Positions 1-5,820 of a DNA stretch of 7,318 nt are shown here, piece by piece. Where the stretch lies: positions 1 to 7,318 of the IMG/VR virus record IMGVR_UViG_2531839446_000012; one strand, written 5' to 3'. This DNA is from a virus. Its lineage: Duplodnaviria > Heunggongvirae > Uroviricota > Caudoviricetes. A program made the position numbers and the translations under genes. The notes under the pieces are model-generated. The model saw nothing but the letters and a program-made list of their open reading frames with translations. It was not told the origin of the DNA and ran no database searches. Within the stretch, counting starts at the first letter, position 1; every line of letters starts with the position of its first letter.

Positions 1-68
1 CACCTCTCCACCGAAAGTCAGTGCTGGCTGTTTTTTTCCTTAATAAAGCATCTGTAACTGAAACAGTC

Positions 69-84
69 CGCATATTGATAATAT
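69..84. repeat. Left copy of perfect 16-bp direct repeat CGCATATTGATAATAT flanking the IS
   Basis: Identical 16-mer at 69-84 and 1421-1436, directly abutting both IS ends. Candidate target-site duplication, but far longer than the 3-5 bp usual for IS3-family elements. Confidence 0.9.
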
Positions 85-175
85 TGAGCTGGCCCCCTGA
101 AATACCAGACAGTAGATGTATCTTAAAATAAGAGATAGGCTTGGATATATGTCTAACACTAGTTCTAATTTTGAG

Positions 176-544
176 ATGGCTGGCGTTTTGTTAGGAAAAG
201 AGGTGCGTAAACGTAAAACACCTCAGGAAAAAATCGCAATTATTCAACAGACTATGGAGCCGGGCATGACGGTGTCCCACGTGGCGCGTTTGCATGGAAT
301 TCAGCCCAGTCTGTTGTTTAAGTGGAAGAAACAATATCAGGAAGGAAGCCTCACTGCTGTGGCTGCCGGTGAAGACGTTGTTCCTGCTTCTGAACTGGCC
401 GCTGCAATAAAGCAGATTAATCAGCTTCAGCGTTTACTGGGTAAGAAAACCATGGAAGTTGAGATCCTCAAAGAAGCGGTGGAGTATGCACAATCGCGAA
501 AATGGATAGCGCATGTGCCCTTGTTACCTTCGGACAAGGAATAG
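176..544 (+). CDS. IS3-family transposase OrfA (HTH DNA-binding, InsC-like)
   Basis: ORF-track frame 116-544; product from the ATG at 176 ([25 protein letters not shown]...[26 protein letters not shown]) aligns with IS2 InsC as recalled. The longest ORF starts at 116 but the first 20 codons have no counterpart in IS2 OrfA; 149 is another possible start. Confidence 0.8.
497..505 (+). other. Candidate -1 ribosomal frameshift site for OrfAB (CGA AAA TGG; A4 run 499-502)
   Basis: Only homopolymeric stretch in the orfA/orfB overlap; slipping back one base on AAAA puts the ATG at 502-504 in frame and joins ...AQSRK to MDSACALV... It is shorter than the A6G motif of IS911-type elements. Confidence 0.4.
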
Positions 545-1383
545 CCCCGGTAAGCCGTGTTCTGGGCGTGTCACGTGCGCAGTTAACATTAAGGATGAAG
601 GCATCTGATAACAAGCCAGATAAACGGCGTCAGAGGCGCGATGAGGCTGCGGATGCAGAAGTCTTATCGCGCATCCTGGATATCATTGGCGATATGCCAG
701 CATACGGGTATCGCCGTGTCTGGGCGATACTCAGGCGGCAGTCCCGAAATGAAGGACTACCGTTCGTGAATGCAAAGCGCGTTTACCGGATAATGAGCGA
801 AAATAGCCTGTTGTTGTTACATGACAAACCATCACGACGGCAGCGGGAACATAAAGGCCGAATATCGGTGAAGGAAAGCGACCAGCGTTGGTGTTCTGAT
901 GGCTTTGAGTTCGGTTGCGATGATGGCGAAAAACTGCGTGTTACGTTCGTCCTGGACTGTTGCGATCGTGAAGCCATAGACTGGGCCGCAAGCACGGGAG
1001 GTTACGATAAAGCGACAGTGCAGGATGTGATGTTAGGAGCGATAGAAAAACGCTTTGGCGATAAAGTACCGGAACAGTCCATCCAGTGGCTGACAGATAA
1101 CGGTTCAGCGTACAGAGCGCATGAAACACGGCAGTTCGCCAGAGAGCTGAATCTGAAGCCCTGCACAACGGCAATCAGTAGCCCCCAGAGTAATGGAATG
1201 GCAGAACGGTTCGTGAAAACGATGAAGGAAGACTACATCGCGTTCATGCCGAAACCAAATGTAAGAACGGCATTGCATAACCTTGCAGTGGCGATCGAGC
1301 ATTACAATGAAAACCATCCGCATAGTGCGTTGGGTTATCGCTCTCCGCGAGAATATCGACGTCAGCGGGTAATGTTAACTTAA
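502..1383 (+). CDS. IS3-family transposase OrfB (integrase/DDE catalytic core, InsD-like), probably made as an OrfAB fusion by -1 frameshift
   Basis: 293-aa ORF in the -1 frame relative to orfA, overlapping it by 43 nt; typical IS3/IS2 OrfB sequence (YRRVWAIL...WCSDGFEF...DNGSAY...[11 protein letters not shown]...[12 protein letters not shown]). Confidence 0.85.
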
Positions 1384-1420
1384 GATACAACCCCTGTCTG
1401 AAAATAAGGGGGCAAGAACA

Positions 1421-1436
1421 CGCATATTGATAATAT
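1421..1436. repeat. Right copy of perfect 16-bp direct repeat CGCATATTGATAATAT flanking the IS
   Basis: See left copy; 16/16 identity, same orientation. Confidence 0.9.
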
Positions 1437-1496
1437 ATTGACAGGCATCATTGCTGTCTGTGAAAAATAAGTCTCTACAAACATATAAGGCCTTTT

Positions 1497-3500: not shown

Positions 3501-3701
3501 GGAAATAAAGGGATAACGATGATAGTTTGAGAAAAACAGAAATAACACTTTTGTGGCAAAGCATGGTGCCGGGTGCCTCCCGGTGAATTCAGTACCAGCA
3601 CCTGAATCCGCGATTATCCCATATACCTACTCGCTGATTGCCCCTCCGCACAGGGGGATTCACCATGCAGAAGTGTTTTTAATAAACAGCAAACAAAAAA
3701 A

Positions 3702-3869
3702 TCAAGCATTATGCAGGCTGTTTCTTTTTATCACCGGCCACAGCAATACCACAATGCCGCAGACCAGCACCCCATCCGCCAGCACCGACATGATTCTGCT
3801 GGTGAAATCCACCATCACCACCAGAAACAGCAGGAGTGCAGCCACAGTCAGGCGCAGTTTTACCGTCAC
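3702..3869 (-). CDS. Small hydrophobic membrane protein (55 aa, two predicted TM helices), translationally coupled to the TerB-like gene
   Basis: Not in the ORF track (GTG start, under 60 aa). The GTG at 3869-3867 overlaps the TerB-like stop as GTGA, with GGAG 10 nt upstream. Product MTVKLRLTVAALLLFLVVMVDFTSRIMSVLADGVLVCGIVVLLWPVIKRNSLHNA. Same strand and operon position as its neighbour. Confidence 0.35.
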   Translation of the reverse strand: MTVKLRLTVAALLLFLVVMVDFTSRIMSVLADGVLVCGIVVLLWPVIKRNSLHNA

Positions 3870-4298
3870 AGGTGATTCTCCAGACGAAGACCCAGAACAC
3901 CGGCAATCTCTTCCAGCACCTTGCGCTCTTCCGGCTCAATTTCGCCGTCTGCCTCCGCAATGGCCACCGCCACATCCAGCACATCTTCCGCTTCACGCGT
4001 ATCGTGTTTCACATCCTCGATCTCACGTAACGCCGCACGACGACCAATTTTAAAGTTCGTATCCAGCTGACCGATAATGGTTGCGCTAATCGCATTAATT
4101 TCTGACGTAAACGCGGACAGCGCAGGCTGATTACGCAGTACCTGTTCGATCTTCGCTTTCTAGGAAGCCTCACATTCACCATCTGCACAGGCCACCAGGT
4201 ATGCGGCGTTAATCACCACCTGTGCCAGATCGCGTTTTTCAAACTTTTTAATTTCCGTTGCCGCTCTGCGGGCTTTTTTTACCAAAAATACCAAACAT
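3866..4298 (-). pseudogene. TerB-like (tellurite-resistance TerB domain) gene carrying a +1 frameshift and an in-frame amber codon
   Basis: ATG at 4298-4296 with AAGGA SD gives MFGIFGKK, then the frame breaks in the A7 run (plus T7 at 4274-4280). The downstream frame reads ARRAATEIKKFEKRDLAQVVINAAYLVACADGECEAS*KAKIEQVL...DVLDVAVAIAEADGEIEPEERKVLEEIAGVLGLRLENHL, with TAG at 4162-4160. The two ADG...E..K repeats are the TerB signature as recalled. Removing one A restores a single frame. Confidence 0.7.
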
Positions 4299-4430
4299 CG
4301 TGACGTTCCTTTGGGTGGGTGAGCCAACGCCCGGAAGCGATCTGCCCACAGAGAAAGTCACACTGACCACTCCGTAAGCTCACCCCCGAAAGGCTCTGTG
4401 GTTGATATGCACCGGGCGTGGCGCAGATAC

Positions 4431-4455
4431 AAAAAAGGCCCGCCGAAGCGAGCCT
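4431..4455 (-). terminator. Rho-independent terminator (minus strand) 12 nt after tRNA-Arg
   Basis: Minus-strand RNA AGGCUCGC-UUCG-GCGGGCCU (8-bp stem, UUCG tetraloop) followed by a U5-6 run. Confidence 0.65.
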
Positions 4456-4467
4456 GGAAAATAAGTG

Positions 4468-4544
4468 TGGCGCGTTGTAGTGGAGTCGAACCAGTGACCG
4501 ATTGCTTAGAAGGCAATTGCTCTGTCCGGCTGAGCTAACAACGC
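4468..4544 (-). tRNA. tRNA-Arg (anticodon UCU), phage argN/argO-like
   Basis: Hand-folded cloverleaf: acceptor GCGTTGT/ACAACGC, D-arm GCTC...GAGC, anticodon stem ATTGC/GCAAT with loop CTTCTAA, T-loop TTCGACT, discriminator G, encoded CCA. One C-C mismatch in the T-stem. Confidence 0.8.
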
Positions 4545-4644
4545 AGAATACCGATAATGGACCGCCATCGGGGACCCGCCCCCGCACCAACAACCCTGTT
4601 ATGGTGTCGTCTGCTCTTCCTGATAAGCTAATGGCGGTATGTGA

Positions 4645-4720
4645 TGGTGGCCCTTGCTGGATTTGAACCAGCGACCTGGCGATTATGAGTCGCTCGCTCT
4701 CACCACTGAGCTAAAGGGCC
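4645..4720 (-). tRNA. tRNA-Ile2 (anticodon CAU, ileX/ileZ-like; formally could be tRNA-Met)
   Basis: 76-nt cloverleaf GGCCCTTTAGCTCAGTGGTGAGAGCGAGCGACTCATAATCGCCAGGTCGCTGGTTCAAATCCAGCAAGGGCCACCA: 7-bp acceptor, T-arm GCTGG-TTCAAAT-CCAGC, anticodon loop CTCATAA. Very close to E. coli ileX as recalled. Confidence 0.85.
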
Positions 4721-4769: not shown

Positions 4770-5820
4770 TCAAACGATTAAATCCTGAACTTCCCTGACT
4801 GTCTGCTCAAAACGTTCAGTCTCCAGCTCAACGCCAATTGCACGACGCCCGAGCGCCAGTGCCGCTTTTACCGTTGAACCTGAGCCCATAAAAAAATCTG
4901 CAACCAGGTCACCCGGACGACTGCTTGCGCTGATTATCTGCTGCAGCATTTCTGCCGGTTTTTCGCACGGATGTTTCCCGGGATAGAACTGCACCGGTTT
5001 ATGTGTCCACACATCCGTGTACGGCACCTGCGCCGTCACACCAAAATACCGCCGCAGATGCTTATATTCACTCTGCAGCTCCGCATACTGTCGGTTCAGA
5101 GAGGCATACGTATCCACCAGCTGGTGGTGGGGCTTTTCCAGTTCACCCCGCTGATGCTTCTCTTCTGCCACCCGGGCAAACAGTGCCTGTAATTTCAGAT
5201 AATCGCTTTCGTTCGGCAGCTGCCACTGACCGGCACTGAACCAGTGCGACACCATGTTTTTCTTTCCTGTGGCATCTGCAATCTGTTTTGCCGTTATCCC
5301 CAGGACAGCGCGCGCATCACGAAAGTAAGCAATCAGCGGGGCCATCACATGCTGTTTCAGTGCCCTACCCTTCGCCTCATACCCGGCATCTTTCGGACGA
5401 TACGGCCCCTGATAATGCTCTGCGAACAGAATGCGCTCTGTGGCGGGGAAATACGCCCGCAGGCTTTCCTTGTTGCACCCGTTCCAGCGTCCGGACGGCT
5501 TTTGCCCAGATGATATGGTTCAGCACGTTAAACCGCTCACGCATCATGATTTCGGTGTCAGATGCCAGACGATGGCCACAGAACAGGTAAAGACTTCCGG
5601 CAGGTTTCAGCACCCGCCAGAACTGCGCAAGACACTGGTCCAGCCACTTCAGGTAATCTTCATCACCCGCCCACTGGTTATCCCAGCCCTCGGGTTTCAC
5701 TTTGAAGTACGGCGGGTCCGTGACTATCAGGTCAACAGAATTTTCGGGTAACGACCGCATAAATTCCAGGCAGTCGGCGTTGATTAACTCACAACTGGAT
5801 ATTTTTACAGTATTAAGCAT
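4770..5820 (-). pseudogene. Orphan DNA N6-adenine methyltransferase (beta class, N6_N4_Mtase family), split by a +1 frameshift as given
   Basis: N-terminal ORF 5377-5820 has motif IV (DLIVTDPPYF) and NHIIWAK; C-terminal ORF 4770-5348 has HPCEKP and motif I (DFFMGSGST). After WAK the N frame becomes Arg-rich junk, while the +1 frame continues plausibly (PSGRWNGCNKESLRAYFPATERILFAEHYQGPYRP...). Break is at the T4 run 5500-5503 (expected T3). No restriction enzyme gene nearby. Confidence 0.7.

Follow-up and report, generated by a model that had tools for sequence, protein, structure and literature searches.

A probable pseudogene of the TerB-family gene tciA, with an A7 tract and an internal TAG codon, in the late region of an Escherichia coli prophage

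Organization of the Prophage Late Region

The window—that is, the whole stretch of DNA analysed, 7,318 nucleotides of the viral record IMGVR_UViG_2531839446_000012—corresponds to the late region of a lambdoid Escherichia coli prophage. Read along the minus strand, the order begins with the genes for RusA, a DUF1133 protein (in the Q position), and a methylase; it proceeds through a tRNA gene with anticodon CAT, a degenerate tRNA, and a tRNA-Arg gene with anticodon TCT; and it continues from there with a terminator-like hairpin, tciA, tciB, a small RNA of the STnc100 type, and an esterase of the SASA/NanS-p type. The features surrounding tciA are the following:

1-1490, plus strand: IS3-family element with overlapping open reading frames at 116-544 and 502-1383, situated directly past the 3' end of the esterase gene
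3525-3697, minus strand: STnc100 small RNA, between tciB and the esterase gene (full-length Rfam match; 101.5 bits, E = 1.4e-22)
3702-3869, minus strand: tciB (DUF3927), intact, encoding a small membrane protein (Pfam DUF3927, 62.6 bits; PHROG 1470, "TciB-like")
4436-4455, minus strand: terminator-like hairpin with a T-run, between tRNA-Arg and tciA
4468-4544, minus strand: tRNA-Arg, anticodon TCT, 5' of tciA (ARAGORN and Rfam)
4545-4644, minus strand: degenerate tRNA-like stretch between the two tRNAs, in which neither ARAGORN nor Rfam calls anything
4645-4720, minus strand: tRNA, anticodon CAT (tRNA-Ile in RefSeq; ARAGORN and Rfam)
4770-5820, minus strand: DNA methyltransferase, split by an extra T at 5500-5503 (T4 versus T3) into open reading frames of 147 aa and 192 aa, and intact with 349 aa in close relatives

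The prophage around tciA is decaying, as is evident from the insertion of the IS element, the frameshift in the methylase, the degenerate tRNA, and a broken pair in the T-stem of the tRNA-Arg. The closest relatives, L001 and L189, have holin and lysozyme genes where the window has the IS3-family element, and no similarity between the window and either of those two loci was found before about position 1491. In the degenerate stretch, an acceptor stem of 7 bp and the CCA end are preserved, but the anticodon arm is scrambled; the stretch can be aligned with the second tRNA (Arg, TCG) of the prophages of the EDL933 type, and we read it as a decayed copy of that tRNA. In the strain 14EC007, an IS421 is inserted at the same position. 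As to the tRNA-Arg (TCT), the T-stem reads CCACT in the window instead of the CCAGT of its relatives, which difference, at position 4494, breaks one pair. A second terminator-like hairpin, at 3500-3482, follows the STnc100 match.

Identity of tciA and of Its Partner Gene tciB

Once the reading frame is repaired as described below, the translation of tciA matches the Pfam family TerB (PF05099) with 52.7 bits (cut-off 24.4; E = 6.3e-14) and, over residues 1-143 of 143, PHROG 632 (E = 2.1e-68), a family annotated as "tellurite resistance" and assigned to the moron category. The repaired translation also aligns, at the level of sequence, with the TerB of the PDB entry 2jxu_A (E = 5.7e-8, query residues 15-137). 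That protein, from the ter operon of Klebsiella pneumoniae, shares PF05099 with tciA, but the homology is distant: the TerB gene sits in the terZABCDEF operon, whereas tciA adjoins tciB in a phage late region; and no tellurite phenotype is known for tciA.

The intact tciB has a GTG start codon that overlaps the stop codon of tciA by 4 nt (GTGA). The tciB stretch of the window is identical to that of L189, which locus encodes WP_000216653.1; the length of the tciB product, being between 43 and 55 aa and varying within every class of tciA allele, is uninformative about the latter. The PHROG families matched by the two genes, 632 and 1470, are both filed as moron genes. The same tciA-then-tciB pair occurs in the same order in the lambdoid coliphages JLK-2012 and PPyecE_EH1910, the former of which has 91.6% DNA identity to the window and bears the two genes under the names tciA and tciB, and the tciA-tciB-tciC cluster of phage P1 likewise consists of a gene of the TerB family followed by one for a DUF3927/TciB protein; unlike these coliphage relatives, the tciA of the window is broken by an A7 frameshift and a TAG. 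The gene names themselves are guesses inherited from the P1 annotation. In P1, tciA, tciB, and tciC proved to be nonessential in a CRISPRi screen (PMC10695390), apart from which finding the literature on tciA/tciB, on DUF3927, and on prophage TerB consisted of annotation-level mentions; nor did the PADLOC defence models yield any significant match.

Reading Frame and Lesions of tciA

The elements of the tciA remnant in the window are:

4307-4310, minus strand: Shine-Dalgarno-like AGGA, read from the sequence, with a spacer of 8 nt to the ATG and of 12 nt to the TTG
3866-4298, minus strand: remnant of tciA (TerB family), a probable pseudogene of 433 nt from the ancestral ATG to the TGA
4296-4298, minus strand: ancestral ATG start codon, the Met at which homologues of several genera and the PHROG 632 profile begin
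4292-4294, minus strand: TTG in the TerB frame, the RefSeq start in the A7 alleles (product MVFLVKKARR...) and the beginning of the CDS in EDL933
4274-4280, minus strand: A7 run, first lesion, with one A more than the A6 of intact alleles
4248-4250, minus strand: TAA ending the 16-codon reading from the ATG (product MFGIFGKKSPQSGNGN*)
4160-4162, minus strand: TAG, second lesion, a nonsense change from GAG (Glu46)
3866-4012, minus strand: residual GTG-started open reading frame of 48 aa from the list of open reading frames, a C-terminal fragment of TciA matching PHROG 3920

On the minus strand the ATG (4298-4296) is followed by TTT GGT ATT TTT GGT, the A7 run (4280-4274), and GCC CGC AGA, and the normal TGA of tciA lies at 3868-3866. 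Relative to the frame of the ATG, the long TerB frame is shifted by +1, and the removal of one A from the run joins both frames into MFGIFGKKARRAATEIKKF..., so that the repaired product, of 143 aa, reads MFGIFGKKARRAATEIKKFEKRDL...ADGECEAS*KAKIEQ...LENHL. An earlier note on this DNA, made from the sequence alone, had described two independent inactivating lesions in a TerB-like gene within the interval 4160-4280, an interval whose ends coincide with the final base of the TAG and the leading A of the run and which thus comprises both lesions. That note's description of the sequence is borne out: the ATG frame breaks at the A7 after MFGIFGKK and would be restored by an A6—the actual state of intact homologues—and the TAG at 4162-4160 is in frame (...ADGECEAS*KAKIEQ...). 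The TAG truncates any product of the window at residue 45, in the first half of the TerB domain (residues 31-138 according to Pfam), and the first in-frame start 3' of that codon leaves only 48 residues.

We assigned the status of lesion to these two states by direct comparison with homologues and not by statistics of chance. A protein search returned 164 relatives, whose full-length members, of 141-148 aa, come from E. coli, Klebsiella, Salmonella, Serratia, Pantoea, Enterobacter, and the Erwinia/Salmonella jumbo phages, and begin with MFG[IFLM]F.KK.R in a single unbroken frame. Because homologues across genera thus begin with MFGxFxKK in one frame, we take the ATG as the start codon of the ancestral gene. 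Of the 80 best IMG/VR loci, 35 had the tract GGT-A6-GCC and 43 had TTC AAA AAG AAA ACC (AAAAAGAAAA), in frame in both instances; at codon 46, 78 had GAG, and the other two, L023 and L043, had TAG. The tciA of EDL933 also has GAG at the position of the window's TAG. Intact relatives accordingly carry either A6 or AAAAAGAAAA at the run together with GAG at codon 46, so that the states in the window are derived, the one through the insertion of one A and the other through a GAG-to-TAG transversion. The comparison also settles the choice between GAG and CAG, which the earlier note had offered as the original codon, in favor of GAG (Glu46). Both lesions are confined to near-identical (about 97-100%) prophage copies of E. 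coli, and the divergent homologues are all single-framed, contrary to the conserved split architecture that had been contemplated as an alternative to decay.

Frequency of the Two Alleles in Complete Genomes

Homopolymer-length errors are frequent in long-read assemblies, and the methylase of the window is also frameshifted in a T-run, in a form present in no complete genome; both circumstances would be in keeping with an artefact of sequencing or assembly hiding a true sequence with A6 and GAG. To type the TAG in 5426 complete E. coli genomes we relied on a 55-mer with the T of that codon at its centre, in which each 28-base megablast word spans the T. The TAG version was found at 1006 places in 577 of the genomes (538 records matching all 55 bases), and the GAG version at 928 places in 456 genomes. 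For the tciA family as a whole, 3989 places were counted, distributed over 840 genomes (median per carrier genome, 6 copies); the TAG allele constitutes approximately a quarter of all the tciA copies. Since the low-complexity filter of BLAST would mask the A7 run, we dropped the megablast-word approach for that tract and counted it by means of blastn with a word size of 11 plus exact identity, a procedure that gives records and not places: the exact 47-mer with A7 was found in 556 complete-genome records. In IMG/VR, 88 TAG loci and 47 A7 loci were present.

As a control, the same word approach was applied to the methylase, whose T3 version was located at 567 places and whose T4 version, that of the window, in 0 of the 5426 genomes; from this result we conclude that the approach separates private from shared states. 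The methylase frameshift, private to the source of the window, could have arisen by recent mutation or else be an error of sequencing.

The combination of A7 and TAG itself occurs, with 99-100% identity, in the strains 14EC007, ML775 (O103), Z1323HEC0423, and O157:H7 PV15-279, where RefSeq labels the gene as "tellurite resistance TerB family protein, internal stop". The A7+TAG allele is, then, already known as a pseudogene in RefSeq (CR535_RS16800, ACRHMA_RS14210, WHU62_RS09625, and ECpv15279_RS10785), but the CDSs of those entries begin at the TTG and so record the stop alone, and not the frameshift with respect to the ancestral ATG. With the identical A7 and TAG states, the A7+TAG haplotype included, recurring across IMG/VR contigs and hundreds of genomes that were finished independently of one another, and with a G-to-T substitution being atypical of homopolymer error, we accord the artefact explanation a virtually negligible probability. 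The two alleles also occur apart from each other elsewhere, in agreement with the earlier argument for real decay as opposed to a single sequencing error.

Allele Combinations and Independence of the Lesions

The combinations of tract and codon 46 encountered were:

A6+GAG: intact copies
AAAAAGAAAA+GAG: intact copies
A7+GAG: EDL933 and 14 distinct IMG/VR contexts
A7+TAG: the window and 13 contexts
A6+TAG: 2 contexts
AAAAAGAAAA+TAG: 2 contexts
5'-truncated+TAG: about 47 of 81 TAG loci in IMG/VR, the commonest context of the TAG

Because each lesion occurs without the other in some genomes, the two are independent. The 5'-truncated copies with TAG have lost the start codon and the first ~15 codons. 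In the one truncated locus that we examined (L085, 4400-5130), tciA lies behind a different Q gene, of the 273-aa zinc-finger type; that locus is without tRNA genes, and its tciB bears a 1-nt deletion. The TAG is embedded in a nearly invariant local sequence that is joined to several—at least four—5' backgrounds, a pattern that would fit a single origin of the mutation, followed by recombination among prophage copies.

Consequences of the A7 Tract Alone

Whether the A7 is inactivating in itself is less evident than for the TAG, and to that extent the claim of two inactivating lesions is to be qualified, since RefSeq treats the A7+GAG copies as intact proteins of 142 aa that start at the TTG (MVFLVKKARR...). 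The CDS of EDL933 (EDL933_RS14775, WP_001303558.1; L003, 1626-2054) starts there, and the proteins P0008, P0010, P0012, and P0052 begin with MVFLVKK, their residues 2-5 differing from the MFGIF consensus of the family. These TTG starts in the O157:H7 entries of RefSeq are a consequence of the displacement of the ancestral ATG out of frame by the A7.

A reading with only one true lesion would accordingly consider the A7 as the normal form of a sub-lineage that starts at TTG, leaving the TAG as the sole cause of inactivation in the window. Besides the annotation of the A7+GAG copies as intact (P0008, P0012, and P0052 among them), that reading can invoke the downstream sequence: the remaining 135 codons are open in 14 of 14 distinct A7+GAG haplotypes, among which the polymorphism amounts to 15 synonymous versus 10 nonsynonymous changes (p about 1e-4 against neutrality). 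Moreover, the A7 is never found on an A6 background, the nearest pair differing at 20 of 850 sites, which points to an old and stably inherited state. Against these considerations, all the divergent homologues use the frame of the ATG; that ATG, which is retained 4 nt 5' of the TTG and has the AGGA at 8 nt versus 12 nt for the TTG, should capture most of the initiating ribosomes; and the synonymous skew is of a kind that recombination could import, the tract being at the extreme 5' end of the gene. TTG is, in addition, a weak start codon. We therefore judge the single-lesion reading to be a possible, if rather unlikely, one, while recognizing that the A7 may leave the gene leaky instead of inactivating it. 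The verdict on the window is unchanged by this question because the TAG truncates any product.

Absence of Tract-Length Switching

A homopolymer placed directly after the start codon, with both A6 and A7 in the population, might suggest that the tract acts as a switch for phase variation, or that programmed slippage, ribosomal or transcriptional, restores the frame there in some of the products—runs of AAA lysine codons being known slippery sequences—and the earlier note had indeed mentioned slippage or phase variation as an option. The comparisons of tract length lent no support to that proposal: among 50 distinct masked haplotypes, none differed in tract length on an otherwise identical background (the 20 differences between the nearest A6 and A7 sequences, cited above, being in the 850 flanking sites), and among 95 IMG/VR matches there was no tract of A8 or longer and a single A5, the latter in a rearranged copy. 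A fast phase switch was rejected on those grounds. The tract is, furthermore, not conserved, with AAAAAGAAAA taking its place in 43 of the 80 best IMG/VR loci and other codons in other genera; and the shift needed would be +1 or -2 instead of the usual -1. Efficient transcriptional slippage requires runs of about 9 or more, in comparison to which the A7 is shorter. A gene with a programmed frameshift was likewise discarded in view of the single frame of all the divergent homologues and of the many close alleles with AAAAAGAAAA, which contain no pure run. In the window, finally, the TAG 3' of the run would make any such rescue pointless. We accordingly regard a switch or slippage function of the A7 as very unlikely. 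In the contingency loci of Neisseria, Haemophilus, and Campylobacter, as in tciA, a mononucleotide run inside the 5' coding end sets the frame; but the run of tciA, unlike those of such loci, is short (7), exhibits no switching between close relatives, and is unconserved in homologues.

Read-Through of the TAG and Signals of Selection

The commonness of the TAG, present in 577 genomes, along with a frame beyond the stop that is open and whose polymorphism is mostly synonymous, raises the alternative that the codon is tolerated or even used, either through suppressor read-through or through functional half-proteins; and phage tRNA genes are located immediately 5' of tciA. Those tRNAs, though, have the anticodons CAT and TCT, and the degenerate stretch between them fits no tRNA model, so that an amber suppressor (anticodon CTA) beside tciA was found by neither ARAGORN nor Rfam and read-through by a neighbouring suppressor tRNA was set aside. 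Half-proteins fare no better: in the commonest IMG/VR context of the TAG, the absence of the start and the first ~15 codons makes the N-terminal part inexpressible, while the TAG cuts the single TerB domain (31-138) in its first half and the next start leaves 48 residues. A functional or tolerated TAG is, in our estimation, extremely improbable.

The polymorphism itself gave contradictory indications. The A7+TAG alleles had 2 synonymous versus 6 nonsynonymous changes, which ratio appears neutral and differs from that of the A6 alleles (Fisher p = 0.011), albeit with small counts and with recombination between paralogues as a confounding factor. Across all the TAG alleles, the region 3' of the stop contained 19 synonymous versus 7 nonsynonymous changes, a proportion similarly subject to confounding by recombination and not different from that of the sense alleles (p = 0.56); the frame after the TAG was open in 18 of 19 distinct TAG alleles. 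The predominance of synonymous changes after the TAG runs contrary to free decay, but gene conversion from intact paralogues would look alike. The pN/pS ratio was therefore discarded as a discriminator between dead and live copies, the A7+TAG alleles appearing neutral and the pooled TAG alleles constrained under the influence of paralogue recombination and small counts.

Selection, as opposed to drift or hitch-hiking, could account for the commonness of the TAG. Both lesions would even be selected states if the A7 maintained a reduced level of TciA, through the TTG or through rare slippage, and if the TAG had spread because the loss of TciA, with tciB and the late genes kept, benefited the lysogen or the phage; this proposal we consider doubtful, with a small chance of being correct.

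Proposed History of the Window Allele and Implications for Annotation

We conclude, with a probability of about 0.85, that the feature in the window is a pseudogene of tciA, a moron gene of the TerB family, disabled by the A7 and the TAG and producing no full-length TciA. In the sequence of events that we propose, the change from A6 to A7 at codons 7-8 sends the frame of the ancestral ATG into a TAA after 16 codons, and the change from G to T turns Glu46 (GAG) into TAG; hence, even upon initiation at the TTG, ribosomes would be expected to stop at codon 46 and no full-length TciA should result. Both mutations are long-standing and in circulation, having arisen separately in a gene family present in multiple prophage copies, and recombination between prophages may have brought the A7 and the TAG together. 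The loss would presumably be tolerated because other copies are present and the gene is nonessential.

With the A7+TAG allele already recorded as a pseudogene, what the present analysis adds is the wide distribution of both lesions as alleles in the population, the possibility that the A7 is only partly inactivating, and the frameshift hidden in the "intact" TTG-started proteins of RefSeq. The biological weight of the observation is small: a redundant, nonessential accessory gene has decayed, which is unsurprising for a defective prophage in a type of genome that typically harbours several paralogous copies. For annotation, its value is that the true start of the family is the ATG, the MVFLVKK... 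proteins of O157:H7 and its relatives being frameshifted at the A7 with respect to the ancestral gene. Should tciAB prove to have a function, such as one in phage exclusion or stress tolerance, the map of alleles would indicate which of the prophage copies could be active.

The 48-aa open reading frame that matches PHROG 3920 would, together with the TAG allele, represent pseudogene debris across many STEC prophages. PHROG 3920, a family of "unknown function" with 48 residues, corresponds to residues 96-143 of intact TciA and, to judge by that correspondence, appears to be made up of pieces of disrupted tciA genes.
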